DNA of 64,000 nucleotides from a virus (IMGVR_UViG_3300014208_000024:32001-96000); one strand, 5' to 3'; shown: positions 1,606 through 53,014, counted from the stretch's first letter. A program made the numbers and translations. Notes: generated from the sequence alone by a model not told the origin.

Positions 1606-1732
1606 AAAGGGGTATAGAATAAACAGGTTGTCTTGGTTGCAAATCCTGGAGTTTAACCAGGACCCATTGAACTAAAGTCAATTGCTCTACACAGAGCTAA
1701 TTTGCGAAGTAACTGTCTAAATTGCCACCTTT
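1606..1732 (-). ncRNA. Y-RNA-like element Y1 enclosing an intact tRNA-like body with UUA anticodon
   Basis: Family stem GGTGGCAAT...AGTTACTTCG; inner cloverleaf ending ACCA. Confidence 0.7.
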
Positions 1733-1864
1733 TAAATTTTAAATATTTTAAAGAACGTTATGGTATGGGCTCCGATGTGGTGTTACCCACATCGAGACTA
1801 CTGCCCCCATCTTTGCAGATCATACATTAACCAGTAGTTTGGTTGTAAATGTACATCAGCCATT

Positions 1865-1939
1865 TGGGTGTTAGAGGGAAATCGAATCCCCGTCAAGGAG
1901 GGTCACAACCTCCACGGACAACCAACAGTCCACTAACAC
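1865..1939 (-). tRNA. tRNA-His(GUG)
   Basis: GGAGG-TTGTGAC-CCTCC. Confidence 0.8.
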
Positions 1940-1941
1940 AG

Positions 1942-2013
1942 CGGGGAAGGAGGGATTTGAACCCCCGACCTCAAAGTTAACAGCTTTTTGCTCTACCACT
2001 GAGCTACATCCCC
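1942..2013 (-). tRNA. tRNA-Asn(GUU)
   Basis: AAAG-CTGTTAA-CTTT. Confidence 0.9.
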
Positions 2014-2016
2014 ATT

Positions 2017-2586
2017 TTATAGTTTATAATTTTCATTTAATCCAGCATGAATTTCTCCATGACAATTTCTACACACCAAAATACATTTATCAACTTCTTT
2101 TTTTAACATTTCTAAACTACAAGATTTTCCAGATATTGTAAAATCTTTTTCTTCTGGATTTAAGTGATGAAATTCTAAAGATTGAGAACATTTTTTATAA
2201 CCACATTCAACACATTCCCCTCCCTTATATTCTATTAATTTTTGTTTTACTTTTTGTCTCCAACTAATAACATTATTAGAGCGTCTTTTTTTAATAGTTT
2301 CTTCATCCATTTTTTTTCTATCTATGGTTATAATATATTTTAAAACAGTAGATTTACTATATTCAAACTCTTTTGCTGTTTTTATACAAGATTTACATTT
2401 ATCATAAAACTCTTGCATTTGAATAATTTTTTCTTCCGTCGGTTTTTTAAACACTTTGAATTTAGATTCTTTTCTACAATGAAAAGAAACTGTTGATTTA
2501 GCACAACCAAGTGCTGTTGCAATTTCGTTATAACTCAAACCTTGAGTTCTTAACTTTAAAATTTCAGTTTTCATACTTTTTACCAT
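2017..2586 (-). CDS. HNH endonuclease with N-terminal HTH repeats
   Basis: CVECGY...LEFHH...CILVCRNCHGEIH. Confidence 0.9.
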   Translation of the reverse strand: MVKSMKTEILKLRTQGLSYNEIATALGCAKSTVSFHCRKESKFKVFKKPTEEKIIQMQEFYDKCKSCIKTAKEFEYSKSTVLKYIITIDRKKMDEETIKKRRSNNVISWRQKVKQKLIEYKGGECVECGYKKCSQSLEFHHLNPEEKDFTISGKSCSLEMLKKEVDKCILVCRNCHGEIHAGLNENYKL

Positions 2587-2660
2587 TTTATTAACATTTT
2601 ATGTTAATAAATAGGTAAAAATTTAAAAATTATAAACACTATTTCAAAGAACTTAAAAAA

Positions 2661-2808
2661 ATCCAGGGAAAATTTGCAAGGGTATAAATTACGTGCTCTA
2701 CCAACTGAGCTATCTCTCCAATTTTGTTTCTATTGCGGAGAGAGCAGGACTCGAACCTGCGACAACGGCATTAACAGTGCGAAGTAACCCTAACGATGGC
2801 CACTGGAA
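2661..2808 (-). ncRNA. Y-RNA-like element Y2 (permuted tRNA, Asn GUU loop)
   Basis: Family stem; order anticodon hairpin, T-arm, acceptor, D-arm. Confidence 0.75.
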
Positions 2809-2839
2809 TTATTTTCAATATTTTAAAGAACATATTTTG

Positions 2840-2913
2840 CGGGTATCAAGGGATTCGAACCCCCATGGTCTTGGTTAACGGCCAAGTGCTTCATCCAGTT
2901 CAGCCAAATACCC
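2840..2913 (-). tRNA. tRNA-Asn(GUU)
   Basis: CTTGG-CCGTTAA-CCAAG. Confidence 0.85.
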
Positions 2914-2917
2914 ATAA

Positions 2918-3138
2918 GAAAATTTCGGGGAAAAGCAGCAAAAGTGTTTTTTCTATTCTCTACCACTGAGCTACATCCCCCATGTTTTGTATGATATTTC
3001 ATACATTAATGCCGTTTTTTGTACATAATGTAGTACATATCCAACATTATTTGGAGGGATGGTGGGATTCGAACCCACGACCTTTTGAATCATAGTCAAA
3101 TGCGAAGTAACTCTTGCAATTGCCACCGAAAAATTTTC
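2918..3138 (-). ncRNA. Y-RNA-like element Y3 (permuted tRNA, AUG/His loop, long acceptor linker)
   Basis: Family stem; TTTGA-CTATGAT-TCAAA; T-arm precedes D-arm. Confidence 0.75.
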
Positions 3139-3140
3139 AA

Positions 3141-3153
3141 TATTTTAAAGAAC
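3141..3153 (-). promoter_or_regulatory. boxA-like antitermination element (representative of about 13 copies)
   Basis: GTTCTTTAAAATA; related copies near 264, 1744, 2641, 2819, 5217, 10263, 10465, 19513, 40571, 40697, 45084, 53024, all in or before RNA-gene blocks. Confidence 0.7.
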
Positions 3154-3158
3154 GTTGT

Positions 3159-3194
3159 AAAACAAAAAACCCAGACTCTTTCGAAATCTGGGTG
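3159..3194 (-). terminator. Attenuator terminator of Thr/His/Asn tRNA operon
   Basis: ACCCAGATT-TCGAAAG-AGTCTGGGT followed by TTTTTGTTTT. Confidence 0.85.
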
Positions 3195-3215
3195 CTTGTT
3201 TTTGTTTTATATGAT

Positions 3216-3305
3216 TTAACTCATAATAGACATATCACACCCAGATAAACATGTGGTATTATGTTTATGTGTATTCGTATTAATATGTATATTACTTGTT
3301 CTCAT
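3216..3305 (-). CDS. Leader peptide MRTSNIHINTNTHKHNTTCLSGCDMSIMS (Thr/His/Asn-rich)
   Basis: 29-aa ORF between promoter and terminator; 5 Thr, 4 Asn, 3 His; contains antiterminator TCTGGGTG. Confidence 0.8.
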   Translation of the reverse strand: MRTSNIHINTNTHKHNTTCLSGCDMSIMS

Positions 3306-3354
3306 TTCTTACTTTATTTTAAATAGTTAAAAAAATTGTTTATTTACCAATTTC

Positions 3355-3392
3355 TACGCAAATATATAAAAAAAGTTACATTAAAAGCAAGT
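3355..3392 (-). promoter_or_regulatory. Class I (probably early, host-RNAP) promoter TGTAAC-N-TAnnTTTGCGTA (representative of about 18 copies)
   Basis: Related motif near 5275, 7773, 10300, 10520, 19770, 23670, 25510, 27265, 27777, 30490, 32392, 33670, 38075, 40988, 42338, 45633, 48740; core resembles the Bacteroidota -7 element. Confidence 0.7.
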
Positions 3393-3443
3393 TTTTTTAT
3401 ATATTTTTTTAAATTATTTTTTTATTAATTGATTTCCAGTGTT

Positions 3444-4136
3444 TTATATTAAGCTCAAAATTGTCCTCTCAACAATTTTTTTCATATAATGCATATCTGT
3501 TTTATTTAAATTATAGTTTGGTGAAATAAAAGGAGCATGTGAATCCCATTTTCCACCCGTATTTCCATCTGTGGATTTTAATATTGTTTGTTTTCCCTCT
3601 CCCCTAAATGCTTTATAAGCGCCATCCTTTTCAGCTGATATTTCTAAAACAACATCTTCATAAAGCACTTCAACATCAACTCTTCCTGGTGCCCCAAACA
3701 TTATTTTATAATCTTCTGTGATTAAATCAAAAACTACAATTAAATTTCCTTTTTCATTAACACTTATATCTTTAATATTAATTGATTTTGGTTTTTCTTC
3801 AGCGCACATTTTACTTATAACCCACTTTATTTCTGAATCAATTTCTTTTTCTGTTTTTTCTGGGATCGGTATAATATTAAATGGATTTGTCAAAACTCTA
3901 TTTCCGCCTGTAAAAAGTAAATATTCTGCTCTTTCTGGAAACCATTTCAAAACTTTATGTTCGCCATATACTGGTTTAATATTATACACTGTTCTTCCAA
4001 CTAAATCTTCAAATTTTTCTATTCCCAATTTTTCTAATTGTTGTTCATATTCTTCTTTTGAGAAATCTCTAAAATTTGTAACATCAATTGTTGCAAGTTC
4101 TTGCAGTCTTTTTTTATATGATTCTGATAAATTCAT
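3444..4136 (-). CDS. Hypothetical protein with N-terminal LSESYKKRLQELA motif (probable virion protein)
   Basis: ORF; start moved to MNLSES; motif shared with 5308..5688. Confidence 0.7.
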   Translation of the reverse strand: MNLSESYKKRLQELATIDVTNFRDFSKEEYEQQLEKLGIEKFEDLVGRTVYNIKPVYGEHKVLKWFPERAEYLLFTGGNRVLTNPFNIIPIPEKTEKEIDSEIKWVISKMCAEEKPKSINIKDISVNEKGNLIVVFDLITEDYKIMFGAPGRVDVEVLYEDVVLEISAEKDGAYKAFRGEGKQTILKSTDGNTGGKWDSHAPFISPNYNLNKTDMHYMKKIVERTILSLI

Positions 4137-4137
4137 T

Positions 4138-4836
4138 TTAATAAGCGTAATTATATTTTGATTTTTTAGCTTTTTCCTTTCTCCATGTGTCATATTCTGA
4201 AGATGTGTTTTCGTCAAACCCAAAGTCAACCACAACAATTTTTGGAACTCCATCTCTTAAAACTTCTCCATAAGAAGATGTTCTTCCAAAATCTCCAGGA
4301 ACTGGATATTGATAATCGCTTATAAAATCTTGCATATCTATTGCAAATTCGTTTTCACTTAAGTCTGGAGCATTACTTCCCCAAAGTCTATCTCCACGCA
4401 TACTTGCCAACCACCTTACAAGATCTTCTGGAGTTGTTTTTGTTAATTCTTTAAATCTTCTTGGACTTACTTTCTTTGCAATTTCCATTTCTATCCACAT
4501 ATCATCTTGATCAACGTCAAACACTCTTGCTAAAACATCATAATTTTGTTTATATCCTTCTGATTCTGCACTATTTTGAGATATTCCCCTATCGTTTAAA
4601 GCAACCTTTAATACCTTCTCATCATCAATTTTGAACACTGCTCTAGATGAGCCAATTCCAACTTTTCCGAGCAAACGTTCTTTTGCATATTTTTGTTTTC
4701 CAGAAAAAGATCTTATATTTTTAAATTCATCGAAATTAAAGCTTGTTGGATAAGCCATTTCGTCAATGTGAAAATCTTTGTTTTCAGCAAACATTTCTTC
4801 AACACATTCTCTTATAATTTTTCTAACAAAATTCAT
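4138..4836 (-). CDS. Protein-kinase-like fold protein
   Basis: GIGSSRAVF Gly loop, VLKVA Lys, IVVVDFG. Confidence 0.65.
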   Translation of the reverse strand: MNFVRKIIRECVEEMFAENKDFHIDEMAYPTSFNFDEFKNIRSFSGKQKYAKERLLGKVGIGSSRAVFKIDDEKVLKVALNDRGISQNSAESEGYKQNYDVLARVFDVDQDDMWIEMEIAKKVSPRRFKELTKTTPEDLVRWLASMRGDRLWGSNAPDLSENEFAIDMQDFISDYQYPVPGDFGRTSSYGEVLRDGVPKIVVVDFGFDENTSSEYDTWRKEKAKKSKYNYAY

Positions 4837-4909
4837 TTAATAATTTTTATATAAATAGTTATAAAATGGAAAAACCCTCACGTTACTTATGCAAGGGTTT
4901 TTTAATATA

Positions 4910-5218
4910 AAGCAATTTTCTGGGAATTCTAGAGTGAGCGGTCACCTCGTATATCTCTGTTCAATTTCCATTATGGAACATCACCTAGTGAGGAACAAAG
5001 TTTAAGGCCAAATGTTTTAAGGTGTTCATTTTTCAACCCATAAACCTTAAGGGTTCATGTAATCTACTCTTTGCCTATCAATTCACCCAACACTTAAGTC
5101 GCAGCTTTAATATTGATTAACGTAAGGCTATGACATCTGAGCCGTTAGTCATTCTTTTTTTTAATGGTACTTAATCGTTGTCGAAGTATCTCAACATCTT
5201 TACCACAAAAAATTGCTT
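4910..5218 (-). ncRNA. Y-RNA-like element Y0 with about 250-nt non-tRNA cargo
   Basis: GTGGTAA...AGATACTTCG 5' arm, TTCCCAG 3' arm, terminal IR AAGCAATTTT; boxA upstream. Confidence 0.6.
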
Positions 5219-5307
5219 CAAAGAACTTATTAACTTATATAAATATAAAAAAAATTTTCATTTTCTATAAGCCTATACGAAAAATTATAAAAAAAGTTTC
5301 AAAAAAA

Positions 5308-5688
5308 TTATTTAAAATATCTAAATCCCTGAAACCCCTTCATAGGAATAGGTTCTATTTTGTGAAAAGGACCAGATCTCTCAATAAATTTTCCACTCCA
5401 ATTCTTTCCAGTGGTTGTACAATTAAAATTTTTTTCGGACATACCAACAATTTTCATCCAACCGATTATCGCTCCATTATATAATAAATAACATTTATTT
5501 CCAGGTTTAGTTTTAGGAAAGTTGTTTACTTTAAAATTCATTACCTGTTTATAATTTTCTACAGCCTTTAATTCCTTTTCATAATCTTTCCATTGAATTG
5601 ATTTTGGAATAGTGACAATAATATCCATTACATTGTCATTTATTCCAGCCAATTCTTGTAACCTGTTTTTATAATTTTCTGTTATCAT
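5308..5688 (-). CDS. Small beta-rich (ASCH/PUA-like) protein with virion-type N-terminal motif
   Basis: TENYKNRLQELAG start; KPGNKCYLLYNGAIIGWMKI. Confidence 0.5.
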   Translation of the reverse strand: MITENYKNRLQELAGINDNVMDIIVTIPKSIQWKDYEKELKAVENYKQVMNFKVNNFPKTKPGNKCYLLYNGAIIGWMKIVGMSEKNFNCTTTGKNWSGKFIERSGPFHKIEPIPMKGFQGFRYFK

Positions 5689-5693
5689 AAAAA

Positions 5694-5894
5694 CTAAGCT
5701 TTTTTATAATTATATTTTGATTTAATCATTGTATCAAAATAATTACCTGGAGAATCTGACTTTATTATTCCATTATATATTGTTTCTGGAACTGAAAAGT
5801 ATTTATATTTTCCGCCTTTAACAAAATCTATTGTTAAAATTTCGGTGGAGTTATTATATTCCACCGATCTTATTCTTGATGAATTTAACTGCAT
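5694..5894 (-). CDS. KTSC domain protein
   Basis: SSRIRSVEY...LTIDF..G.KYKYFSVP...Y....SDSPGNYF. Confidence 0.9.
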   Translation of the reverse strand: MQLNSSRIRSVEYNNSTEILTIDFVKGGKYKYFSVPETIYNGIIKSDSPGNYFDTMIKSKYNYKKA

Positions 5895-5983
5895 ATTCTT
5901 TTTATTTTAAATATACAACAATTTTAAAATAAATTCAATTGAATTATCTATAAAAAATTATTATATTTATTTAAAAAAGACAT

Positions 5984-6142
5984 ATGGAAAGAAATAAACC
6001 CAGGTTGGCCATAACAATTTCTCCTGAAATTGCAGAGAAATTAGAAAAACATAAATACAACAAATCAAAACTTGTAGACTCATTGTTAACAGATTATTTC
6101 AAAAAACTAGATGAAGATGTTGTGAAACATAAAAAAAATTAA
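5984..6142 (+). CDS. Small ribbon-helix-helix-like protein (52 aa, not in ORF track)
   Basis: MERNKPRLAITISPEIAEKLEKHKYNKSKLVDSLLTDYFKK; paralog at 28710..28853. Confidence 0.7.
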   Translation: MERNKPRLAITISPEIAEKLEKHKYNKSKLVDSLLTDYFKKLDEDVVKHKKN

Positions 6143-6204
6143 TTTCACAAGTGCTATTTTTATTTTTCTGCATATTTATAATAAACAATTAAATATTATA
6201 AATT

Positions 6205-6369
6205 ATGGCACGTAAAAAAATTAACCCAGAAAACAAAAAACAACATCTCTCTATTGTTGTTTCTTCAGAAAACTTTAACAGATTAAAAGAATTAGATTTA
6301 AACGAATCTAAATTCATCGACTGGTTATTAAAAGAACATTTCTTTAAATTAGAAAATGGAGGAAGGTAA
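6205..6369 (+). CDS. Small ribbon-helix-helix-like protein (54 aa, not in ORF track)
   Basis: KKQHLSIVVSSENF...NESKFIDWLLKEHF; paralog at 28490..28660. Confidence 0.7.
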   Translation: MARKKINPENKKQHLSIVVSSENFNRLKELDLNESKFIDWLLKEHFFKLENGGR

Positions 6370-6371
6370 TT

Positions 6372-7100
6372 ATGGAAACTAAAATATGCTCTAAATGCCA
6401 TGTTGAAAAACCTAATGATGAAGATTATTTTCCTAAAAGGAATAATAAGCTTGAATATAGATGTAAATCATGTCGTAAAGAATATTACGATATATGGAAA
6501 TTTAATAATGCAGAAGCTAAAAAACAATATGATAAAGATTATAGAGCTAAAAATTATGATAAACTTAAAAAATACACAAACGAATATAATGAAAATTTTC
6601 TATATAAGAACGGTGTAAAACGCCATACAAAATACTGGCAAAACAACAAAGAAAAAATAAAAACAAGAAGAGAGAAAAACAGAAATAATGAAAATATATT
6701 AAGGAACAAAAAAAGGAATGAGAGGCGAAAAGTTGACCCATTATTTAATCTACAAGAAAAAATAAGAACAAAACTTAACAAATTGTTTAAAAACAATGGA
6801 TATAAGAAAAACAAAAAAACAATTGATGTTATTGGATGTTCGTTTAAAAATCTAAAACTATATATAGAATCTAAATTTGAATCTTGGATGAATTGGGAAA
6901 ATCACGGATTATATAATGGACAGTTATATTATGGTTGGGACATAGACCATGTTATTCCATTGTGTACTGCTAAAACAGAAGAAGAATCTTTAAAATTATG
7001 GTATTATACAAATCTCCAACCTCTTTGCAGTAAAATAAATAGAGATATTAAAAAGGATAAAATTAATTTTAACTGTGCAGCAATTTTAAATTTCCCTTAA
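6372..7100 (+). CDS. HNH-like homing endonuclease
   Basis: CSKC...CKSC; WDIDHVIPL...YYTNLQPL. Confidence 0.8.
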   Translation: METKICSKCHVEKPNDEDYFPKRNNKLEYRCKSCRKEYYDIWKFNNAEAKKQYDKDYRAKNYDKLKKYTNEYNENFLYKNGVKRHTKYWQNNKEKIKTRREKNRNNENILRNKKRNERRKVDPLFNLQEKIRTKLNKLFKNNGYKKNKKTIDVIGCSFKNLKLYIESKFESWMNWENHGLYNGQLYYGWDIDHVIPLCTAKTEEESLKLWYYTNLQPLCSKINRDIKKDKINFNCAAILNFP

Positions 7101-7753
7101 ACACCTGTTTAAGGCTTGCTTTTTTCCCTGTTATATGGTCATGTACCAAATCGCTTTTAAAAGTATACATTCTTCTTTTATCTCCCCTAAATCCAGTTCC
7201 AATCTGTTCTTTTCTTTCTCTATGCTCTTTTTCTTTTTTATTAGAATCATATAGTTTTTGTACCCTTCTTGTCAATTCTTTTAGGGCAATTTCTTTGTTT
7301 TTTAGTTGACTTCTATCTTCATCACATCTTACTACCAGTCCAGTGGGAACATGCTTTAAATTCACACAAGAATAGGTGCGATTTCTTGCTTGTCCACCTG
7401 GACCTGTCCCATTTGTGATTTTAATTTCCACATCACTATCCTTTAGTTGGATTTTTACTTGTTGCCCAGGCTCCATTACAGCCACAGTGACTGAACTAGT
7501 GTGAACTCTGCCTTTTGATTCTGTTGGTGGAACACGACTAAACGTATGACCTCCAGCTTCATTTGAAAAGAATTTTTTTACGCCAGCACCGCTAAAGACA
7601 TAAAGAAATACATCCATCTTTCTCTTCTAAAGTAGAGATGGAAAAATTTTCAACCCTGGCCGCTTTTCTATAAACATCAGCCAAATCTTTTGCAAGAAGT
7701 TTTGAATCCATTCCTCCTTCTGCTGCACGAATTTCACAAATAATTGTTTCCAT
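7069..7753 (-). CDS. prfA: RF1-type peptide chain release factor (no domain 1), two ORFs joined by a +1 frameshift at CUU-UAG-C (7597..7591)
   Basis: EIRAAEGG (frame 0); VPPTES PxT motif and GPGGQ motif (frame +1). Confidence 0.85.
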
Positions 7754-7820: not shown

Positions 7821-7834
7821 AAAAATATTTATAT

Positions 7835-9289: not shown

Positions 9290-9519
9290 AAAAATTATGT
9301 AGATTTGATCCTAACATAAATTTTCTAATCAGGTTGAATTAAAGAATGTAGAGTTTTTTGTTTTTTTAATCATAGGAATTTTTTTTCAAACAAATTTCTT
9401 AAGTGGATTTTTCCACCTTTGTCTTAAAAGACTCTTTAAAATAGATATAAATATCTTCCTACTATAATAAATAGTAAAAAAAAATCTCAACCCTTTCGAA
9501 TTGAGATTTTTATAAAACC

Positions 9520-10250
9520 CTGAGATTATAGGTTTAGTGAGTCAACTTTCGGGGGATTATTGGTTCCCCACCTTATCCACATACCTTGCGGCATGTACCA
9601 ACTCAATCTCGATTGGTTAGACCAATCACCTCTTTCGTCATAAACTACTCTACTGCTACTACCGCCATAACAAGAGTGCCCCCCTGCCATAACATTTCAC
9701 AATAATCCGTTAAACCTTGCGAGTCAAACGTCCCCAGTTCAACCGAAGTTGCCAGGATCTGAGAGACCTTTCGCCTATAACGCCAGCGGAACTTTTGCTT
9801 GCTTGAATTTTTTTCATAAAATTGAAGTTGTGCTTTTAATTGAAGATGTGCCGCTGGAACAGCTTCGTTCCTTTTGGGAACGAAATACTATACACCCTCT
9901 GCGCCCTTTTGCATCGGTACGCTCTCACCTTCGCCGCCCTGTAACTCTTACGAGAACGAGAACTCCAAAGATAAATGGAACACGCTCTAAAGCTTGCTAA
10001 ACCTTGAACATTATTCCTCGGCTTTTCCTATTGCCCCTTTCGGAGATCAACCGCCTCAAGCACTTCAGAGACGATATTTCACTCAGCAGTTGCCCTTGTG
10101 AAATGTACTAACCTATTGTATGCTCGACTTCTTTTCAAAAGCGACAAGATATTAACCTCGCCTTTATCCTGGTCACCCAGTTTATTTTCCTGACCCTTTC
10201 GGATCAGGCTTGACCACCAGTAGGTTGTCAACGACAGCACACTGCCATAA
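9520..10250 (-). ncRNA. Large structured ncRNA, GOLLD-like (about 730 nt)
   Basis: GC-rich non-coding island with many GNRA/UUCG hairpins, own promoter, boxA and terminator; size and tRNA-proximal phage context fit GOLLD. Confidence 0.6.
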
Positions 10251-10370
10251 ATTTTTTATCAATATTTTAAAGAACGTATCTTACTTAATTTTCTACTCTA
10301 TACGCAAAGATAAGAAAAAAGTTTCAAAAAAACAAGTTTTTTTTATTTTTTTTTTAAAAAACTTTTTTTA

Positions 10371-10454
10371 AGAGACGTAACCAGGCTGCTCAACCACTAC
10401 CCTTGCTTTCTTCCGAACCTGGGGGAGTTCGTAGGAGCCTGCCTGTTACGCTTT
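10371..10454 (-). ncRNA. ffs: Small SRP (4.5S) RNA
   Basis: Long hairpin with CAGGTTC-GGAA-GAAAGCA domain IV motif; boxA and promoter upstream. Confidence 0.85.
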
Positions 10455-13408: not shown

Positions 13409-14311
13409 TTATCTTATAATATTTAATTCCTTTTCAGTCCATACCTCAAATGGTATGTTATTTTTTTTACAATATTTTTTAACAGCTTTAATTTTTTCTT
13501 TATTATTCCATCTATTTAACAATCTTTTTGGCTTAACTTCAACTATTTTTTTTAGTTCTTCTTTGTAAAAAATTTCAAAATCTATAATTGTACTTCTTTT
13601 TCCATTCCTATATTTTATATTGTATGGCTCGTAATTATAATAAAGAACATTATCATCTTTTTCTAATATTTCCATAGCTATTAACTCATAAGAACTTCTG
13701 TATTTTATTTCTTTTTTATTTTTATTACTATAATAAATTCCACCTTTATATTTTTTATGTGATGGAGAAATCCCAAACATTCCATTGCTTTTTCCGCTAT
13801 TTTTTCCTTTTATAGAATTTGATATTTTCTTTTTCACATCCTCGCTTTGTGATGCACATTTTTTAGAACAATAAATGTTTTCATGCTTATTAACTTCTTT
13901 TCCACAAAATTTACATCTTGGTTTTTCTTTTATATTTTTTTTCTTACCTGCTTCAATACGCTCTATTAAAAATCCAAACGCACCATTTTCTCTAATGCGT
14001 TTTTTTATAGAATCTCCTATGTTTTTTTTCGTTTTTTCTGATTGAATTCTTTTGTTTGCACAACTTCTAGAACAAAACATAGAATATTTTTTTTTCTCAA
14101 AATCTGTTTTTTTTAAAATAATCTCATATTTTTTTCCACATCTCAAACATCCAAACTCATACTCTAATCTTTCTATTTTTCTACTATTAGATGCTTTTTG
14201 TATCATGTTTTTTTTGTTTGGGTTTTTTTTACAATTAATTATATGACCACCAAGTTGTTGTTGCTTGTCATATTTTATTAATTGTCCACAATATTTACAT
14301 TTTTTTTCCAT
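13409..14311 (-). CDS. Homing endonuclease, Zn-ribbons plus TnsA-like PD-(D/E)XK domain
   Basis: YRSSYE...YEPYNIKY...IDF...IVEVKP. Confidence 0.8.
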   Translation of the reverse strand: MEKKCKYCGQLIKYDKQQQLGGHIINCKKNPNKKNMIQKASNSRKIERLEYEFGCLRCGKKYEIILKKTDFEKKKYSMFCSRSCANKRIQSEKTKKNIGDSIKKRIRENGAFGFLIERIEAGKKKNIKEKPRCKFCGKEVNKHENIYCSKKCASQSEDVKKKISNSIKGKNSGKSNGMFGISPSHKKYKGGIYYSNKNKKEIKYRSSYELIAMEILEKDDNVLYYNYEPYNIKYRNGKRSTIIDFEIFYKEELKKIVEVKPKRLLNRWNNKEKIKAVKKYCKKNNIPFEVWTEKELNIIR

Positions 14312-14440: not shown

Positions 14441-14607
14441 AAATTAGGGAAATTTCGAACTAAGCATTTTTCTTTTTCTGCCCCATTTAACCACTCTGGA
14501 ACCCCCCCGAATTACTCCTTATTTGTCGAGGGGGATGGATTCGAACCACCGAAGGCTTACGCCAGCAGATTCCTTATCGAAGTAACTTAATTTGTTACCA
14601 CTAATTT
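14441..14607 (-). ncRNA. Y-RNA-like element Y4 (permuted tRNA-Tyr-type body, no anticodon loop)
   Basis: Family stem; long variable arm, T-arm, acceptor, D-arm CAGAGTGGTTAAA. Confidence 0.75.
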
Positions 14608-15387
14608 ATATTTTTTATTCCAATTTTCTATTTTGTTTTTTAAATCATCTAATGAAATAGAACATTTTTTATTTTTACTTGAATTATTTGAATGAACCAT
14701 TAATTTGCAATTTGCTGGATGAGAAATAATATTTGAATCAATTTTTTGTTTAAAACCTTCCGAAATTGAAAACATGTGATCTCTACTAATTCCATTTAAG
14801 TTATTCCCTTTATTCTTTGCACAATACCATCCAAATTTTTTAATCAACTCAAAGTCAAATTCTTCTACGAAATCTTTTAGATTAAAATTAAATCGACACT
14901 CTGATTTATATATATTAAATTCAGTCATCTTTTTTTTATCAAAAATTTTTCTACAATTTATCCCACAAAATTTATTTTTTCTTTTTTTAAATGGCAAAAT
15001 AGCATTACACTCTAAACAAAAATTTGGATTTTCATAATATTTGTCAATACCATTTTTTTTAATATTAGCATTTTTAATGTTTTCTTTTGCTTTGTCACTA
15101 AAAACAACTTTTCTGCCAGTATTTTTCTTATTGTTAAATGATGTAGAACAACTTAAAGAACAAAAAGTATTAAACCTTTTTTCGTATGAAATTAAATTAC
15201 CACAATGTTTACATTTTTTAATATCAATTTTAGGTTTATGAAATTCATTATAACAAGTTAAGGAACAAAAATGTTTTCTTCCCATTTTTTCACTTCTTTT
15301 AAATTCTGTTTTTGTTTTTTCAAACTCATTTTTACAATTTTCGCAAATTATTAAAATTGTTTTTCTATTATTCTTAAAAATTTTCAT
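14587..15387 (-). CDS. Zn-ribbon HNH-like homing endonuclease
   Basis: CxxC repeats; ISRDHMFSI...HPANCKL. Confidence 0.75.
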   Translation of the reverse strand: MKIFKNNRKTILIICENCKNEFEKTKTEFKRSEKMGRKHFCSLTCYNEFHKPKIDIKKCKHCGNLISYEKRFNTFCSLSCSTSFNNKKNTGRKVVFSDKAKENIKNANIKKNGIDKYYENPNFCLECNAILPFKKRKNKFCGINCRKIFDKKKMTEFNIYKSECRFNFNLKDFVEEFDFELIKKFGWYCAKNKGNNLNGISRDHMFSISEGFKQKIDSNIISHPANCKLMVHSNNSSKNKKCSISLDDLKNKIENWNKKYKLVVTN

Positions 15388-15459
15388 ACTTTTATTTTTC
15401 TTATAAATATTAAAAAAAAATAAAAGTGGAGTTTTTTTGAGTCGAACTTGTATGCTTAG

Positions 15460-15533
15460 TGGAAGTGAAGGGTTTCGAACCCTCATACCTTATGCTTGCA
15501 AAGCATCTGCTCAGCCAATTGAGCTACACCCCC
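15460..15533 (-). tRNA. tRNA-Ala(UGC)
   Basis: TTTGCAA loop, G3:U70. Confidence 0.9.
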
Positions 15534-15945: not shown

Positions 15946-16098
15946 AAATTAGGGAATTCTTCGCAGAATCTGTTTTTAAGCGCTCTAACCAACTGAGCTA
16001 TCCCCGCATTATTTTTTATTTAGAGCGGGGAACAGGATTCGAACCTATGGCCTCTGTCTTGGAAGGACGATGAAATTCTACATTTTGCCACTAATTTT
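15946..16098 (-). ncRNA. Y-RNA-like element Y6 (permuted tRNA, Gly UCC loop)
   Basis: AGTGGCAA/TTCCCT stem; GTC-CTTCCAA-GAC. Confidence 0.72.
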
Positions 16099-16906: not shown

Positions 16907-17058
16907 AAATCAGGGTAAAAGCGAATAAGCTTTTTTGTTTTTGAATTTTTCCCCATAGTTTAAAATTTAATTGGTGGGGAAAGCAGGATTCGAACCTACA
17001 ATGTTTAGTTTTACAGACTATTTTCTTCCGAAGTAACTCATTCTGTTGCCACTGATTT
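16907..17058 (-). ncRNA. Y-RNA-like element Y7 (Tyr GUA loop, T-arm, acceptor with ACCA, no D-arm)
   Basis: Family stem; TAGT-CTGTAAA-ACTA. Confidence 0.7.
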
Positions 17059-17059: not shown

Positions 17060-17131
17060 TGGAGGATAACGATACCGATTCGTTGGTCTGTTGCTTGCAA
17101 AACAACCGCTTTACCATTAAGCTAAGCCCCC
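17060..17131 (-). tRNA. tRNA-Ala(UGC), atypical T-loop
   Basis: GTTGT-TTTGCAA-GCAAC; G3:U70; T-loop ATCGGTA. Confidence 0.7.
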
Positions 17132-17811
17132 AATTTATAATAAGAGAAAATGTGATTTTTATGAGATTTATTAACACCTCTACAAACCTTAGAAACACAA
17201 TTCCAATCAAACCCATCTTCTATAACTTGCCTTCCAAAATTATAAATTTTTATCAAATTATTTTCTAAATTATAACAAAAAACTTTTTTACAATTCTTAC
17301 TATTTATTCCACTATTTTTTTCTTTTGTTTTTTCACTCCATTTTAATCCAACTCTTTTAGCAGACATTTTTTCTTTACTTTCTTTAGAATGATTTTTTCC
17401 ATAAAATCCATTTTTATCTCCAAGACAACTTGTTTTTCTTGTTTTTGACATCTTTATTTTTGATTCTTCCGAGTGTTTGAAAATTCCTTTTTTACCTTTG
17501 TTCCAAGGAACAACACTGAATGAACCATCTCCACCATTTGTCATATTTGTAAGCTCAAACCCCCAAGTTTTAATTTGAGAAATCCAATATTTTTCCCAAA
17601 AATCACAACTTAACTCATCAGTTTCTTCTATGATAAAAAGTTCTGGTAACAATCCATTTTTTTTTAATTTTTTAACCCAAGCAGTTTTTTTTGTATTTTT
17701 ACTTTCATTTAAATGGTCTCTAAATCTTCTTTCTACCCTATATGTTTTTCCAACATATTTTATACTTTTATTTCTTGGGTCAGAAAGTAAATAAATATAA
17801 ACTTTTTTCAT
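17122..17811 (-). CDS. GIY-YIG homing endonuclease with NUMOD3/NUMOD1 motifs
   Basis: YIYLL...KYVGKT...R; GFYGKNHSKESKEKMS. Confidence 0.9.
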   Translation of the reverse strand: MKKVYIYLLSDPRNKSIKYVGKTYRVERRFRDHLNESKNTKKTAWVKKLKKNGLLPELFIIEETDELSCDFWEKYWISQIKTWGFELTNMTNGGDGSFSVVPWNKGKKGIFKHSEESKIKMSKTRKTSCLGDKNGFYGKNHSKESKEKMSAKRVGLKWSEKTKEKNSGINSKNCKKVFCYNLENNLIKIYNFGRQVIEDGFDWNCVSKVCRGVNKSHKNHIFSYYKLGA

Positions 17812-18435: not shown

Positions 18436-18509
18436 TAAATCAGGGAATAGTTACCGAGGGAGTTTTTTGATTTGCAGTCGAAGTATCCCTACTGATTGCC
18501 ACTGACTTT
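18436..18509 (-). ncRNA. Minimal Y-RNA-like element Y8 (Cys GCA loop only)
   Basis: Family stem closing GA-CTGCAAA-TC. Confidence 0.65.
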
Positions 18510-42073: not shown

Positions 42074-42251
42074 TTTTCATATTCTTTTATTTGCAAGAAC
42101 AAAACTTGGTTTTCCCAGGCAAACTGAATTGTTTTTGTGTTAATTCTTTCTGTAATTTGTGCACTCATATTATATTTTTAAAACAATATAAAAAAAAATC
42201 CCCCCAAAATCAAGAGATTTCAGAGGAATTTTAGAAACGAAACGAAACGAG

Positions 42252-42324
42252 CCCGACCAGAGGGATTCGAACCCACAACCATCTGTTTTAGGGACAGTTG
42301 CTCTGCCAATTGAGCTATGGAAGG
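42252..42324 (-). tRNA. tRNA-like gene with CUA (amber) anticodon, degenerate acceptor
   Basis: CTGT-CCCTAAA-ACAG; two acceptor mismatches, C33. Confidence 0.55.
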
Positions 42325-43290: not shown

Positions 43291-43335
43291 AATAAAATTT
43301 TAATTTAAGTTATAACCGCACAACATGTGCAATCG

Positions 43336-43409
43336 AAGGAAAGACAGGACTCGAACCTGCGACCAAATCGGTTCTAGAAACCGTTGCTCTGCCACTGAGC
43401 TACATTCCC
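43336..43409 (-). tRNA. tRNA with CUA (amber) anticodon
   Basis: CGGT-TTCTAGA-ACCG; canonical D and T arms. Confidence 0.7.
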
Positions 43410-44880: not shown

Positions 44881-44998
44881 TGTGCTACACATTGTTTTTT
44901 TACATGTTTTGCAAACTTTACTCACAAACAACTACAGCTGATTGTTGTTTGCTTTCATCATTCACTCCACAATCTGAAACGTGTTAAGCAGCCATTTG

Positions 44999-45067
44999 TA
45001 GGCGGAGATGGATACGAACCACCAATCTTCTATTCGAAGATAGACGCTTTACTTAAGCTACCCGCCT
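44999..45067 (-). tRNA. tRNA-like gene, 6-nt anticodon loop CTTCGA (Arg UCG-like)
   Basis: AGGCGGG/TCCGCCT acceptor; TCTAT/ATAGA stem. Confidence 0.55.
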
Positions 45068-47512: not shown

Positions 47513-47552
47513 GATTAATGTTTACAAATAAATAGTCAGATAAACCGCATTC

Positions 47553-47960
47553 TTACAATTTTCTTAAAAAAACTTTTGGCAAGTACACATTTTCTAAAAA
47601 AACAGCATTTTTAAACAGTGGGGCAATTTGCTTTGGTTTATATCCAGCTAGTCCAGTCCCTATTGGTGTGACTAAAAAAGTTAATTGTGTATTTGTTTTT
47701 GCAAACTCAACAAATTCATCAACATAAGGTTTAATTTCATTAATTGTTAAAACCCTTCTTATTGAAGCATCTTTTGTTGGAATTCCATAAGTTTTTCCTT
47801 GTAACCCAGCTGCTTGTCCCCACTTTGCACCCCAACCCAGTGCTGTTTTTGCCGCACCCTTACCGTGCCGTCCGCTCAAATTTGATCCAAAAACAAAGAC
47901 TTCATTGTCTTTTAGTTTAGAAATATTATCTGGAGTTATTCTTTCTATATTATTCTTCAT
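47553..47960 (-). CDS. A1S_2505-family macro-like phage protein
   Basis: VFVFGSNLSGRHGKGAA...GLQGKTYGIPT...VTPIGTGLAG. Confidence 0.8.
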   Translation of the reverse strand: MKNNIERITPDNISKLKDNEVFVFGSNLSGRHGKGAAKTALGWGAKWGQAAGLQGKTYGIPTKDASIRRVLTINEIKPYVDEFVEFAKTNTQLTFLVTPIGTGLAGYKPKQIAPLFKNAVFLENVYLPKVFLRKL

Positions 47961-48744
47961 CTCTTTCAGCTTTTATTTCATAAACCTCTCCAATATCAAG
48001 TAATTTAAATTTTGTAAAATTATACAGTTGAAACTTGCTTTGATGGAAGTGGGCGTAAATCCACCATTTAATTACGTTTATTTCATCCAGTTTTTTATAA
48101 ATCTTTCCAACTAATTCTCTTTCAGCAATAAGTTCTTCTTTAAGTTCTGGGTCACACTCAATCCACTTAAAAACAGTTCCCCCTAAAACTGGAGGGTATA
48201 CAAAATCTGGTGCCGTGTGAGTTACAACAATATCTATTCCAGCTATTGTTTTTAATTTTTCTTCGTCATAAATTACTTTTTCTGCACCTGGCCACCAATC
48301 TATTCCCTCTTTTCTTCCAGGGTAATTGTGTCCCCTATAGTCCTTAAAATTGTGATTCGGTTTTCTATCAACACATGTAGCGCCTCCTATTCCTAAAACA
48401 GCACGTTCTCCTATTTCAACAATATCATAATCTTGCATAAATACAATGTTTGTAAAATTATGGTTTCCATCAAAGAAAATAGGGTTGTCATGATTCCCTC
48501 TTACAACATAAAGGAAAATTTTTCTTTTCTTTAAAAAAATATTAATTTCTTCTAACCTTCTCTTTTCTTTTTCTGGCTGTCTTGGATCATTATATCTAAA
48601 ACCAACACCCAAATCACCAGCTTGAAACAATATCATATTTTCTAAATTGTAATATTTCACTTTTTCTCTTATAACATCAAATTCTCCGTGTATATCACCG
48701 ATCACTCCAATGGCAAGATTTTTATGTTGTCTGATTACATTCAT
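47950..48744 (-). CDS. Calcineurin-like metallophosphoesterase
   Basis: GDIHG, GDLG, RGNHD, THTAP, HFH. Confidence 0.9.
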   Translation of the reverse strand: MNVIRQHKNLAIGVIGDIHGEFDVIREKVKYYNLENMILFQAGDLGVGFRYNDPRQPEKEKRRLEEINIFLKKRKIFLYVVRGNHDNPIFFDGNHNFTNIVFMQDYDIVEIGERAVLGIGGATCVDRKPNHNFKDYRGHNYPGRKEGIDWWPGAEKVIYDEEKLKTIAGIDIVVTHTAPDFVYPPVLGGTVFKWIECDPELKEELIAERELVGKIYKKLDEINVIKWWIYAHFHQSKFQLYNFTKFKLLDIGEVYEIKAERDEE

Positions 48745-48843
48745 ACTTATTATACGTTTTTTTTTGTTTTTTTGTTACACATTTATTATAAATATCAAAA
48801 ACTATGGAAAAGAAGAAGTAGATGAGTAACTTTTATAAAAAAA

Positions 48844-49191
48844 CTATAAACAATTTTTCAAATCCAAAGTAGAATGTTTCTTTAAAAAATCAATGGAGTC
48901 TTCTATTTTTTTACAGTTTGATTTAAAATTGGAAACATCTTCTTGAGATAGCAAAAACCATTCTCCTAATAAATTTTCAAAGTCTTCTGGGATATATTTT
49001 TTGTGTTTTAAACTTCGATGTATTATAGTTTCTATTTTTTGATATTTTTCACTTTCATATCCATCTATAATAATTAATTTTAAAGGATTTCCAGTCTGTA
49101 GAGACTTTAATCTTTCATTTATTGTATTTTTAGTTATTCCAACTTTATACAAGTCTGTTTTTTCTATATTTATTAAATATACAAATCCCAT
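48844..49191 (-). CDS. T5orf172/GIY-YIG-like protein
   Basis: GFVYLI...YKVGIT...RLKSLQTGNP...GEWF. Confidence 0.85.
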   Translation of the reverse strand: MGFVYLINIEKTDLYKVGITKNTINERLKSLQTGNPLKLIIIDGYESEKYQKIETIIHRSLKHKKYIPEDFENLLGEWFLLSQEDVSNFKSNCKKIEDSIDFLKKHSTLDLKNCL

Positions 49192-49259
49192 GTAAAAAAT
49201 ATAAACATAATATTTTAATAAATCAAATTTTTATCTATTTATATGAAAACCGTAAAACT

Positions 49260-49634
49260 ATGGACTTAAAGAAATATGTCAATGAAGAAGTGTCTAAATT
49301 GCACAAACAAGTTATGCTGGAATCTGAATTAAAAAAAGTTAATGAAGATTTAAATCTTTTAAAAGAAGGAGAAGAAGGCGGAGAAAAAACATACGAAAGT
49401 AATGTTTATGAATCTTATAAAAAAGATCTAGAAGAAGTAGTTAGAAATCTGGCGGATGCTTGTAACAAACTAGAATCGGCTACTTTAAAACAAGATCAGC
49501 ATATGAAAAACATTCCAGAAGTTGCCGAAAGAAAAAGTTCTGGCAGTGCTTCAAAACAAGTTATATTAGACATCTTTAAAGAAGTTAAAAAAGCAAAAAT
49601 CGCTGCAGAAAGAAAATTATACGAAATGAGATAA
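49260..49634 (+). CDS. Coiled-coil probable virion protein
   Basis: LKKYVNEEVSKLHK motif. Confidence 0.65.
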   Translation: MDLKKYVNEEVSKLHKQVMLESELKKVNEDLNLLKEGEEGGEKTYESNVYESYKKDLEEVVRNLADACNKLESATLKQDQHMKNIPEVAERKSSGSASKQVILDIFKEVKKAKIAAERKLYEMR

Positions 49635-49702
49635 ATGGGAGACATTAAATAAAAAAGGGGGTTTTTGCCCCCTTTTTTTATTCTTCATTATTGATTTGTA
49701 AA

Positions 49703-49939
49703 TTAGACCATAAATGGATATAGTTCATCATCCACTCTAATGTCAACTAATCCTTGATCAATTTTTTCTGGGGTTGTATAGAGATTGATTGTTTGATAAT
49801 CTATGTTCTCTTTTTCTAAAAAACATTTTAATAGATATGCTATTTTTTGCCTTGTTTCATTGTCGTTTGGTTCAGCAATAAAAGCGTTGAGAATTTTTAT
49901 AATCTCTTCATTTACTTTTGTTTTGTGTCTTATGTCCAT
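49703..49939 (-). CDS. Hypothetical protein
   Basis: ORF. Confidence 0.55.
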   Translation of the reverse strand: MDIRHKTKVNEEIIKILNAFIAEPNDNETRQKIAYLLKCFLEKENIDYQTINLYTTPEKIDQGLVDIRVDDELYPFMV

Positions 49940-49977
49940 TTTGTCTTTGTTTTATTTAGTCAAATATAAAAAAAATA

Positions 49978-51162
49978 TTAAAGAAAACAAAATTTATTAT
50001 TAACAAATCTTAATATATTTTCTAAAACAATTCCTGGTGTTTTTTTATATTCCTTTTCCCATGCAACAAAAACATCATATCCTTTATTTTTTAAAAACTC
50101 TATTTTTCTATCATCATTTTTCCATATTTCAATAGCAGTTTTTCCAACAATTTTGTTTTCATAATTTTCACTATATTTTTTTGGGTTACAATGCCAATAA
50201 TCTCCATTAAATTCTACACACATTTTTATATTAGATATAACAAAATCGTATAAATAATGTATTTTGTTTTCACCATCTTCAATGTCAAATTCTTTGTTTA
50301 ATTCAGAAAAATAGCATTTATTTTTCAATTCATCTGGCAATTTTTCATAAATTGACCAAAAAAGTTTTTGAGACATTTTAGACACTCTATTATTGTTAAT
50401 AAAAATTGGATTTTTAATTCCATATATTTTTGTCCAAGTGTTTTCTCTGTTTTTTAAAGTTTCTTTACGATAGGAATTATGTCTCACGCCATATGTTTCA
50501 ATCATGGTGTTTTCCATTTTATCCATAATCAAACTACTTTGAAGTGGGTATAAAACTCCATAATTAGAAAATGTTGTAGCAGTTTTTTGCGCTTTTACAA
50601 CATTAGACTTTGAAACATTATCTACTCCATATGTTAATGCAACCGTTTCTTTTATTTTATTCTTTATAGTCTCATTTTGAAGGGGGGTTTTAAATCCATA
50701 TTTTTCAATATTAGTTTTTTCTATCCTTTCACGCATTTTTTTGTCTTGTAAAATATATTTTGTACCGTATTTTTTAAAATTAGTATCTTCAACTTTTTTC
50801 ATTACTTCTTTATTTTGCAATGGATGCTCAACTCCATATTTTTCCATGCAAGTTTTTTTCCTTTTTTCTTTTATATTTTTCGAGTTATGAGAACACTTTA
50901 AAGAACATCCTGTATTATATCCTTTAGAAAAATCTAAAAAATTCACCTTTTTTATCCCACAATATTTACATTTTTTTATAGAAGTTATATTATTAACAAT
51001 ACAATAAATCCTTTCTGACATTTTTGGATTATATTCATTTAAGAATAATGTATCTTGAATTATTTCTTCTTTTATTTTTTTTTCTCTAGAAAACGAACTC
51101 AAAATAGATTTAATTCCTCTTTTTTTTATTTCTTTTGTTATAAAATCAAACAATTCACTCAT
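49978..51162 (-). CDS. Homing endonuclease with KYGV repeats and Vsr-like C-terminus
   Basis: Repeats (E/K)KYGV.HP.Q; YLYDF...EFNGDYWH...WE. Confidence 0.8.
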   Translation of the reverse strand: MSELFDFITKEIKKRGIKSILSSFSREKKIKEEIIQDTLFLNEYNPKMSERIYCIVNNITSIKKCKYCGIKKVNFLDFSKGYNTGCSLKCSHNSKNIKEKRKKTCMEKYGVEHPLQNKEVMKKVEDTNFKKYGTKYILQDKKMRERIEKTNIEKYGFKTPLQNETIKNKIKETVALTYGVDNVSKSNVVKAQKTATTFSNYGVLYPLQSSLIMDKMENTMIETYGVRHNSYRKETLKNRENTWTKIYGIKNPIFINNNRVSKMSQKLFWSIYEKLPDELKNKCYFSELNKEFDIEDGENKIHYLYDFVISNIKMCVEFNGDYWHCNPKKYSENYENKIVGKTAIEIWKNDDRKIEFLKNKGYDVFVAWEKEYKKTPGIVLENILRFVNNKFCFL

Positions 51163-51254
51163 ATCAAATAGTATTAAAATTCTATTATAAATATGATAAA
51201 AAAATAAAACCCCAGAAAAATTCCGAGGTTTTATACAAAATTAATAAAAAATTG

Positions 51255-52852
51255 TTAAAACTCAATATAATTCTTTATTGTATCAACAAGTGCATTTTTA
51301 TCTTGTTCAAGAATTTTCATCAAGTCAAATATTTTATCACTCCAACCCGCCAGTGCACATACTTGTGATTCTGGAAATTGCATAGTTCCATACCCATTTA
51401 AATCAAAAGAATATACATAAGGATTACATTTATATCTTTCTTTATACGCTTTAAAATCTGATGTTGGTGCGTGATTTCCAATCCAACCCTGTAGGTCTGA
51501 AAGAATTATTAGCCTTTCATATTTCTTATTAATAGCTCTGAAGATAGAGTGAAAATCTGTTCCACCATCAGTAAATCTGATATTCTTAGCAATAGTCAAA
51601 ACACTATCTGAAGGATTCAAGTTTTGGTATCTTGCATTGCTATCGAAAGTCATAAAATCTGAGTTATTGCTCTTTACTATGATAGCCGAGAACAATCCTC
51701 CTATTTGTGCAGGTTTTCCTTGCATAGAACCAGATACGTCAAGTATAACTAATGTATCTCCTTCAAATATTGGAACGTTAGAACAAGAAATATCAACTGC
51801 ATTGTTTAAAGCTACCATAACTTGTCTAACTTCTTTTGAAGAATTACTAGACATAGCTTCAATTTCTTTCATTGCTGTATCATATCTGAAAGGCAACACC
51901 AATGAATTTTTGATAGCTCTTTCGTTAACAAGCAATCCGCATGCTGTTTTAACTTCACCAGGAGCTTGTTCAATTATGTTTCTCAAGTTTCTTAACAAGT
52001 TGAAGTATGGCATTTTTCCACTATTAAGCATTTCTTTCCATACATCAGCTTTAAGTTGTGCTTTTTCGTTTGCACTTGAAGCTTCTTGCCCAGCTTTTGA
52101 CATTTTTGCTTCAGTGGTTTCGGTGTTTTTCAACATACCTGCCATTAAAGCATCCAATGCTGGTAATTGAACTGTTCCCGTTTTTTGTCTTTTAACAGGA
52201 GACAATATTTCTTTTACTTTTGCAATTTTTGCAGCATTTTTCTTAGAATTCTTGTTCAAACTTTTTAATTTTGCTTCAAGCAAAGAAATGTAATCTTCCT
52301 TTGAAACTTCAACAAAACCATTTTTTTCGGTTGGAACAGGGTGTACAAGATTAACAACGTCAATTAATGTAACTTCCTTGTTTTCCATTTTGTACTTAGC
52401 CAATTGGTAAGCATCAAATTTTCCAAAAGCTTCAGAAAACCCTTTTTGCATTGATTTTGACAAAGATTTGTTTTTTTGACCAAAGTAGTATGCAATAGTT
52501 TCTACCATGTCGTCAGGTCTACGAACAATAGCCTTGTAAAAATTCTTAGCCCATGATTCTCCAGACAATTTCTTTGCAAGTTCTGCAGCCAATACGTGAG
52601 TAATGGAACGCATACCGAATTCTTGTCTTGCATAAACAGCTGCTTTAGCTGCAAACAAAGGATTAACACGATCTAATACACTTTTAAGTCTAGAAAGACC
52701 ATCAGTTGCTTTTTCGTAGAATTTATCTTCAACGAAAGAAGTTAAAAGAATAGACACCAATTCTAACTCTGCTGATTGTTTGTAGCTTCGCCACCAGCTA
52801 AGTTAACAGTTTTGGTAACTGCTTTTGGGGTTGTTTTGCTAAATTTTGACAT
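51255..52852 (-). CDS. rsr: Ro60/TROVE-vWA RNA-binding protein, one base short of continuity near 52786
   Basis: NLAGGEA|YKQSAELELVS, FDAYQLAKY, NLLRNLRN, DVSGSM, ILSD; frame break after codon 23. Confidence 0.85.
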
Positions 52853-52890
52853 AGCGTTTTGGTTTTTGGTTAATAATAAAAAAATTAAAA

Positions 52891-53014
52891 AAAAAGGGAA
52901 AGTTTTGAAGAGTGTGATTCTCCCGTTTCCAGGAGAAATAACGTCCACATTTCTGAGGGCATTATTGGAGTCGAACCAATTTTAACCGAAGTAACTCTAT
53001 CAATTACCACTTTA
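52891..53014 (-). ncRNA. Y-RNA-like element Y9 directly upstream of Ro60
   Basis: AGTGGTAA...AGAGTTACTTCG / ACTCT...TTTCCCT; T-arm ATTGG-TTCGACT-CCAAT. Confidence 0.75.

Follow-up and report, generated by a model that had tools for sequence, protein, structure and literature searches.

Bacterial Y RNAs such as YrlA and Yrn1 tether and gate the Ro60 protein and recruit tRNA-recognizing enzymes. Ro60 and Y RNAs have been studied closely in animals and a few bacteria, but the purpose of the tRNA-like part remains open. YrlA carries a 5′ motif, GNCGAAN0-1G, that is presumed to contact Ro60, together with a YUAY junction, and in Mycobacterium smegmatis, where the acceptor stem has 7 bp, the RNA is cleaved in vivo at the RNase P site and acquires CCA (PMC4201824). 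Phages can encode such partners too: the Ro60 of Thermus phage phiLo binds two Y-like RNAs encoded upstream of it, Yrl1 and Yrl2, as documented by electrophoretic mobility shift assays and cryo-electron microscopy (PMC12135203; PDB 9KOP, 9L5Y). Here we analyzed a 64,000-nt stretch of DNA (the window), corresponding to bases 32001-96000 of a 372,283-bp virus record from a groundwater metagenome assembly (IMGVR_UViG_3300014208_000024), which harbors a Ro60 (TROVE) gene and ten copies of a small RNA element built from a constant module, the handle, and a variable insert, the cargo. We consider it probable that these elements constitute a family of Y-RNA-like RNAs, specific to phages, that partner the phage Ro60, most likely as an undescribed branch of Ro60-partner Y RNAs; this reading is supported because many other phages also carry the handle beside their Ro60 gene. 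The family would extend Ro60 and Y RNA biology to huge environmental phages and a crAss-type gut phage, and it offers natural variation on the purpose of the tRNA-like part, with up to 12 versions per genome.

A first-pass annotation of the window, made from the sequence alone, had listed ten loci beginning with GTGGYMA, nearly all with a shared motif and most ending in TT(T)CCC. All ten exist. Nine are exact matches to the composite motif GTGGYMA-N6-12-WTACTTCG, for which 100 shuffles gave an expectation of 0.00, and the tenth, with its 5′ G at 16091, carries the junction UUUCAUCG in place of WTACTTCG; every copy ends in (U/A)(U/C/A)CCC. The positions given earlier were real, but they marked the 3′ (low) ends of elements that lie on the minus strand. 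Two further copies outside the window (24124, minus, and 338514, plus, in coordinates of the whole record, G000) bring the genome total to 12; the repertoire, called greatly expanded at first, is large, but with relatives carrying 3-9 copies it stands at the top of a range and is no singular event. The window copies, E1 to E10, and the Ro60 gene are listed below; the upper coordinate of each element is the 5′ G of GUGG, and the copies outside the window are referred to as E0 and E11.

1610-1728, minus strand: E1, handle with a normal-order tRNA-like domain, called tRNA-Stop UUA by ARAGORN
2666-2803, minus strand: E2, handle with a permuted tRNA, Asn GUU (ARAGORN after rotation; Rfam YrlA 44.9 bits)
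2928-3126, minus strand: E3, handle with a permuted tRNA, His-like AUG loop, 70-nt linker between the acceptor strands
4922-5206, minus strand: E4, handle with a cargo of about 250 nt without known likeness; among the ten copies, this one has the least secure 3′ end
14447-14601, minus strand: E5, handle with a permuted tRNA of class-II-like form that includes a variable arm and has a Ser-like GGA loop
15785-15923, minus strand: E6, handle with a permuted tRNA, CAU anticodon loop, break at 28/29 (Rfam YrlA 36.7 bits)
15952-16091, minus strand: E7, handle with the variant junction UUUCAUCG and a permuted tRNA, Gly UCC loop (Rfam YrlA 30.8 bits)
16913-17052, minus strand: E8, handle with a Tyr-like anticodon hairpin (CUGUAAA), T arm and 7-bp acceptor closed by a linker, no D arm
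18443-18502, minus strand: E9, 60-nt cargo-less handle, top match of the covariance model described below (57.3 bits)
52896-53010, minus strand: E10, handle with a T arm and two hairpins, followed by a run of nine U
51255-52852, minus strand: Ro60 (TROVE) gene, Pfam TROVE E=1.6e-19

From 5′ to 3′, the elements share the order GUGGYMA, about 5 nt, the 5′ strand of a closing helix (P2), (U/A)UACUUCG, the insert, an A-rich linker that often ends in ACA, the 3′ strand of P2, and about 10 nt ending in UUCCC. The helices quoted in the first-pass annotation (AGGG/CCCU, AGAG/CUCU, GAAUGAG/CUUAUUC and AGACAG/CUGUUU) are present in the sequence, and their covariation was examined with a covariance model, R1, built from 13 short members that lack cargo, of which one comes from the window and 12 come from other viral contigs. 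On these 13 members, RNAalifold returned P2 with compensatory changes at all five pairs, including the first base of WUAC. Built mostly from the members of other phages, R1 recovered exactly the ten copies in the window, all on the minus strand, and its next match had E=3. Across 52 sources it yielded 60 matches, 47 of them distinct, in which 97.5% of cells were paired, as opposed to 81.7% in shuffles and 41-71% when partners were slid as a control. In the 47 distinct sequences, double changes were found at all eight pairs.

The terminal helix, P1, consists of G1-C, G3-C and G4-C around a bulged U2, and compensatory variants exist for all three pairs. In one alignment (A2) these are GUAG..CUC in six cases, GUGU..ACC in one and AUGG..CCU in one, within genomes that also hold GUGG..CCC copies, and further variants occur in LR745206 (one GUAG..CUC) and in the gut phage csAssE-Sib. 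Although the alignment was fitted to the model, the variants are visible in the raw ends, and they back the bulged-U terminal helix (G-U-GG/CCC) that had been proposed. The YUAY position at the junction of closing stem and V-region reads UUAC or AUAC in 11 of the 12 copies, its first base being the last, covarying pair of P2. We regard the family and its structure as solid; because a script that detects 3′ partners by regular expression accepted a chance partner in ~12% of shuffles, weight was placed on the covariance model and on the TROVE controls below. Cargo-less, covarying members exist in many phages, which suggests that the handle may work without cargo and speaks for the Ro60-partner reading, and the 60-nt minimal RNA and the covariance model are now in hand for binding tests.

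By homology the TROVE protein of the window is a Ro60, with the Thermus phage phiLo Ro60 as the closest solved structure (E=6e-19). As had been noted at the outset, one element lies immediately upstream of its gene: the 3′ end of E10 is 43 nt before the TROVE ATG (52852), and an ortholog of E10 lies upstream of TROVE in a related record (G002; L113:2804-2917). Viral contigs were scanned for relatives with a pattern and then examined with scripts and R1. Complete elements were found in ~18 other viral records, with one to nine copies of the 5′ module per record, nearly all on one strand. A TROVE gene was present in 17 of 17 records with a complete element, a ratio that overstates the number of independent events, as these records are not phylogenetically independent, versus 0 of 4 records with only a chance 5′ motif. 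The TROVE-positive records include fragments of 10.8-50 kb, some of them only 7-20% complete, and 16 of the 17 have at least one element within ~2.5 kb upstream of TROVE on the same strand. TROVE itself is rare, being found in 73 of 50,697 phage records by tblastn with the window Ro60 as query, and a handle scan of a genome collection returned three contigs of metagenome-assembled genomes only, all viral-looking.

The linkage persists across considerable divergence. In the closest database homolog, LR745206, whose Ro60 shares 49% identity, a handle member lies 0.46 kb upstream of the Ro60 gene, and in csAssE-Sib, whose Ro60 is 29.5% identical, three members fall within the 500 nt before the gene for a ‘Ro sixty-related protein’. 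Two of the three members in csAssE-Sib enclose its annotated tRNA-Tyr and tRNA-Lys (L144:3409-3816; OR575929.1 72592-72999). Because the acceptor stems of these two consist of A and U only, they are probably Y-RNA cargo rather than translation tRNAs, and annotated phage ‘tRNA genes’ that sit in a Ro60-type handle may not serve translation.

The cargo varies widely. The inserts of E2, E3, E5, E6 and E7, described beforehand as circularly permuted tRNAs, do fold as cloverleaves in ARAGORN after rotation, with Asn GUU, His-like AUG, Ser-like GGA, Met CAU and Gly UCC anticodons, respectively. In E2 the anticodon hairpin is followed by the T arm, by a 7-bp acceptor that a 16-nt linker closes, and by the D arm; each permuted copy has a 7-bp acceptor closed by a linker of 14-70 nt, whose start resembles the CAAA trailers of the phage's true tRNAs. 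In tRNA numbering, the break falls at 28/29 in E2, E6 and E7, at ~26/27 in E3 and at 31/32 in E5. The succession of T arm, acceptor-like stem-loop and D arm is complete in these five copies, partial in E8, E10 and E0, where mainly a T arm and an acceptor-like hairpin are present, and missing from E1, E4, E9 and E11. E9 and E11 have no cargo at all; an interpretation of the E9 loop as a Cys anticodon loop is unsupported, as cargo-less members of other phages show unrelated loop sequences. The ~250-nt cargo of E4 had no Rfam match and no significant fold (minimum free energy z-score -0.86). Comparison with the phage's own tRNAs also led us to reject the idea that the cargos are recent copies of them.

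E1 differs in holding a normal-order tRNA-like domain, with a C1/A72 mismatch, an encoded ACCA, a D loop (UGUGUA) without GG, so that G18 and G19 are missing, and a T loop (UUAAACU) without C56. In the relative L058, the ortholog of E1 shares these unusual D and T arms but differs in the anticodon loop (UUC). Normal-order tRNA-like cargo is the common form among relatives and no oddity: the usual cargo there is a normal-order tRNA mimic with a U5/A5 ‘acceptor’ and no CCA, and with anticodon loops of Gln UUG, Lys CUU, Glu UUC and other types, located beside permuted and cargo-less members. Taken over this genome and its relatives, the mimics include Asn, Tyr, His-like, Lys, Gln, Glu, Met, Gly and Ser types. 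Between the tRNAs and the Y-like RNAs of the window lie homing-endonuclease-type genes, all on the minus strand, for a GIY-YIG plus NUMOD3 protein (17122-17811), a helix-turn-helix protein with a Cys-rich C-terminal part (2017-2586) and a TnsA-like endonuclease (13409-14311).

YrlA is among the described systems closest to the family. In both, the 5′ and 3′ ends form a stem of two helices interrupted by an internal loop, a YUAY-type junction precedes the order of T arm, acceptor-like stem-loop and D arm, and genes, often in several copies, are found next to Ro60, although of the window copies only E10 falls within the ~4 kb of a Ro60 ortholog that marks YrlA; the copies with a 7-bp acceptor resemble M. 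smegmatis YrlA in particular (PMC4201824). Comparison with the Rfam YrlA model (RF02553), as the first-pass annotation had suggested, bore out this architecture, with matches of 44.9, 36.7, 30.8 and 25 bits for E2, E6, E7 and E3, all below the gathering score of 69 bits, and no match for the remaining window copies. They are sub-threshold but non-random, and take in the T, acceptor and D arms as well as the stems on either side. Unlike YrlA, however, the elements replace GNCGAA(N)G with a GUGGYAA/UUCCC helix containing a bulged U and with UACUUCG, many members have a full anticodon hairpin, many carry a normal-order tRNA mimic or no cargo, and copies are scattered in tRNA operons tens of kilobases from Ro60.

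Other systems share individual features. In phage phiLo the Y-like RNA genes also lie just upstream of the Ro60 gene, but its RNAs were selected for study by a CGAA motif in a large bulge, and neither tRNA-like cargo nor a GUGG/UACUUCG handle is described for them (PMC12135203). Metazoan Y RNAs and Deinococcus radiodurans Yrn1 likewise have a terminal helix formed by both ends, with a single bulged pyrimidine beside G-C pairs that is the Ro60 site there; the bulge here is U rather than C, only three pairs are formed, and neither a GGUCCGA motif nor a La-type oligo-U logic is present. The CAGCAA/UACAGCAA and CAGTAAA handles of Felix O1-type and jumbo phages resemble ours in having one closing stem with a single-stranded UAC.. 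motif, tRNA-derived cargo and tRNA arrays by a Ro60-like gene, but AGCAA follows UAC in place of UUCG, and the invariant second terminal helix with its bulge is absent. The permuted tRNA genes of Cyanidioschyzon merolae have the 3′ half before the 5′ half and acceptor ends joined by a linker; theirs mature through a bulge-helix-bulge (BHB) motif, a splicing endonuclease and a circular intermediate, whereas here no BHB motif can be seen, copies differ in their break points, and the same flanks surround cargo-less and normal-order members. At gathering thresholds, Rfam reported only tRNAs, GOLLD and signal recognition particle (SRP) RNA in the window, placing the handle in no family and finding no ribozyme family, and we found no paper that describes the handle or that reports Y RNAs from huge or crAss-type phages.

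Several copies have putative transcription signals of their own. A promoter-like box, GTTCTTTAAAATATTGAAAAT, stops 7-9 nt before G1 in E0, E1, E2 and E3, and divergent forms precede E4 and E10; four boxes are located as follows.

1736-1756, minus strand: promoter-like box GTTCTTTAAAATATT(T/G)AAAAT, 7-9 nt 5′ of G1 of E1
2811-2831, minus strand: same box, upstream of E2
3133-3153, minus strand: same box, upstream of E3, after an intrinsic-terminator-like hairpin
53011-53038, minus strand: box variant GTTCTTAAAAAATATTTAAAAT, upstream of E10

E7, E8 and E9, on the other hand, begin 5-11 nt after a tRNA, E7 being 11 nt after tRNA-Pro and E9 directly after tRNA-Gly, and the 5′ end of E5 overlaps the final codons of an open reading frame (14587-15486). 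In copies that are not followed by a tRNA (E2, E6, E10 and E11), a U tract comes straight after CCC. Promoter-like boxes and U tracts would be consistent with discrete small RNAs, though they are no proof of them.

As to Ro60 binding, processing and function, we infer the following scheme. Each RNA would be read from the minus strand, either from its own promoter-like box (E0-E4 and E10) or as a piece of a tRNA polycistron (the others). The ends of the handle pair as G1-C, G3-C and G4-C around the invariant bulged U2. Next come an asymmetric internal loop, in which YAA (5′ side) and CAA..UU (3′ side) are conserved, and P2, 5-9 bp of free sequence in which pairing is kept, with an apex of invariant single-stranded UACUUC and then G. 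Folded in this way, the handle may dock Ro60. The variable module occupies the space between that G and the A-rich 3′ linker. Some members lack it; in others it is a tRNA mimic attached by the anticodon stem (permuted as in YrlA, the 7-bp acceptor being closed by a tRNA-trailer-like linker), a mimic attached by the acceptor end (normal order), or an unrelated RNA. Permuted copies would probably be cut as M. smegmatis YrlA is, at the RNase P site, and remain on Ro60 as two-piece RNAs.

A more far-reaching proposal, which we consider unlikely as it stands, is that the handle acts as a portable Ro60-docking tag with which phages display a shifting set of tRNA mimics whose anticodon stem-loops are intact. 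On Ro60 these would counter host anticodon nucleases and other tRNA-targeting defenses in the role of decoys, sensors or repair templates, with the homing-endonuclease-rich tRNA arrays as the means of swapping cargo. That homing-endonuclease-type genes are an engine for cargo shuffling is plausible.

Could the handle instead be a device for making tRNAs? Flanks that join the ends would allow a nuclease and a ligase to excise and circularize the insert, and RNase P and 3′ processing would then open the circle at the acceptor to release working tRNAs. Such a route would suit the five cargos that are complete permuted tRNAs, with their 7-bp acceptors, canonical anticodon loops and tRNA-like CAAA trailers, and the shared break of E2, E6 and E7, just before a conserved G; moreover, the phage genome encodes RtcB (G000:10068-11324, minus, E=7.8e-54) and an Rnl2-type ligase (G000:21794-22264, minus, E=1.1e-11), both outside the window and upstream of the tRNA and Y-RNA region. 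Yet the cargo-less members are conserved and covarying across many phages, and the commonest cargo of relatives is already in normal order, with no need of rejoining, and has a U5/A5 acceptor stem without CCA. Break points vary among E2/E6/E7, E3 and E5, the E5 loop lacks U33, and the cargos are not copies of phage tRNAs, with canonical Asn, Met, Gly, Ser and Tyr tRNAs already present. Neither a BHB-type processing signal nor a fixed junction that would give a canonical tRNA after circularization was found among the copies. RtcB occurs in only 1 of the 17 handle-bearing records and in 0 of the 5 complete ones, as against 17 of 17 for TROVE, and we rejected a link between RtcB and the handle; the maturation route as a whole seems very improbable to us. 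Still harder to credit is the notion that some copies are working tRNAs with an unusual leader and trailer whose release the handle regulates, above all E1 as an ochre suppressor. E1 is called a tRNA by both ARAGORN and Rfam (54.7 bits) and encodes ACCA, and the genome also holds two CUA suppressor tRNAs; but E1 lacks G18, G19 and C56 and has the C1/A72 mismatch, its ortholog in L058 has UUC in the anticodon loop instead, and the open reading frames of the window read well with the standard code.

A generic role, in which GUGG..CCC and P2 clamp the ends of small RNAs to protect them from exonucleases, or mark processing or termination within tRNA operons, would account for the U tracts that follow CCC directly in E2, E6, E10 and E11, for the placement of most copies inside tRNA arrays at a distance from Ro60, and for the missing canonical Ro60-binding motif; the association with Ro60 would then reflect ancestry or co-regulation rather than binding. 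A clamp, however, requires neither an invariant UACUUC nor a bulged U nor conserved bases in the internal loop. Synteny with TROVE holds in records of 10.8-635 kb, from groundwater to the human gut, at TROVE identities down to ~30%, and handle-bearing records contain TROVE always, even those that are 7-20% complete, so that we judge the generic role improbable.

Several observations nevertheless weigh against a family of Ro60-partner RNAs. All copies stay below the YrlA gathering score, and the YrlA and Y RNA motif GNCGAA(N)G, or CGAA, is absent from the 5′ strand, which has GUGGYMA instead. P1 is too weak for thermodynamic folds, which reproduced P2 and the cargo and tRNA arms but not P1, leaving this helix to covariation alone. 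The distance to the Ro60 gene is 34-51 kb for all window copies but E10, nine of the ten, and ~253 kb for one copy elsewhere in the genome. The co-occurring records are, as stated, related to one another, and R1 finds no handle near the TROVE gene of a Vibrio phage, Halogranum virus HGTV-1 or a Xanthomonas phage, from which we conclude that the handle is clade-specific; near TROVE of the crAss-like phage cr111_1, R1 gave a weak, partial match only. No RNA sequencing run was found with this sequence, and only two DNA runs, both from groundwater, contain sequence of the phage. The Ro60 frame, finally, is broken: its first 23 codons are in another frame than the 501-codon body, with one base missing near 52784. 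The ATG frame (52760-52852, minus) reads MSKFSKTTPKAVTKTVNLAGGEA and then a stop, and the body continues with YKQSAELELV.. in another frame. Because the LR745206 ortholog is continuous (MSKF..NLAGGESYSQS..) and in a related contig of a second groundwater study an added base at 52783 restores GCT TAC and mends the frame, the lesion amounts to one missing T, which may be either real or a sequencing or assembly error.

Beyond the Ro60-linked family, the minus strand of the window carries ~30 tRNA genes, and Rfam places a GOLLD RNA and a small SRP RNA in the window as well. The GOLLD RNA (9517-9900, minus), a full-length Rfam match of 226.6 bits, lies between tRNA arrays, and the small SRP (4.5S-like) RNA (10370-10453, minus) scores 42.3 bits against an Rfam threshold of 40. 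The promoter-like box found upstream of E1 to E3 recurs at 10255-10275 (minus), before an unassigned stretch between the SRP RNA and GOLLD. Directly before E8, a tRNA at 17060-17131 (minus) with a UGC anticodon and an aberrant T arm was recovered by Rfam (50.8 bits) and missed by ARAGORN. Farther along, at 42251-42324, 43335-43409 and 44998-45067 (minus), lie two tRNAs whose anticodon, CUA, is that of an amber suppressor, together with a tRNA-like gene to which ARAGORN assigns a two-base anticodon.

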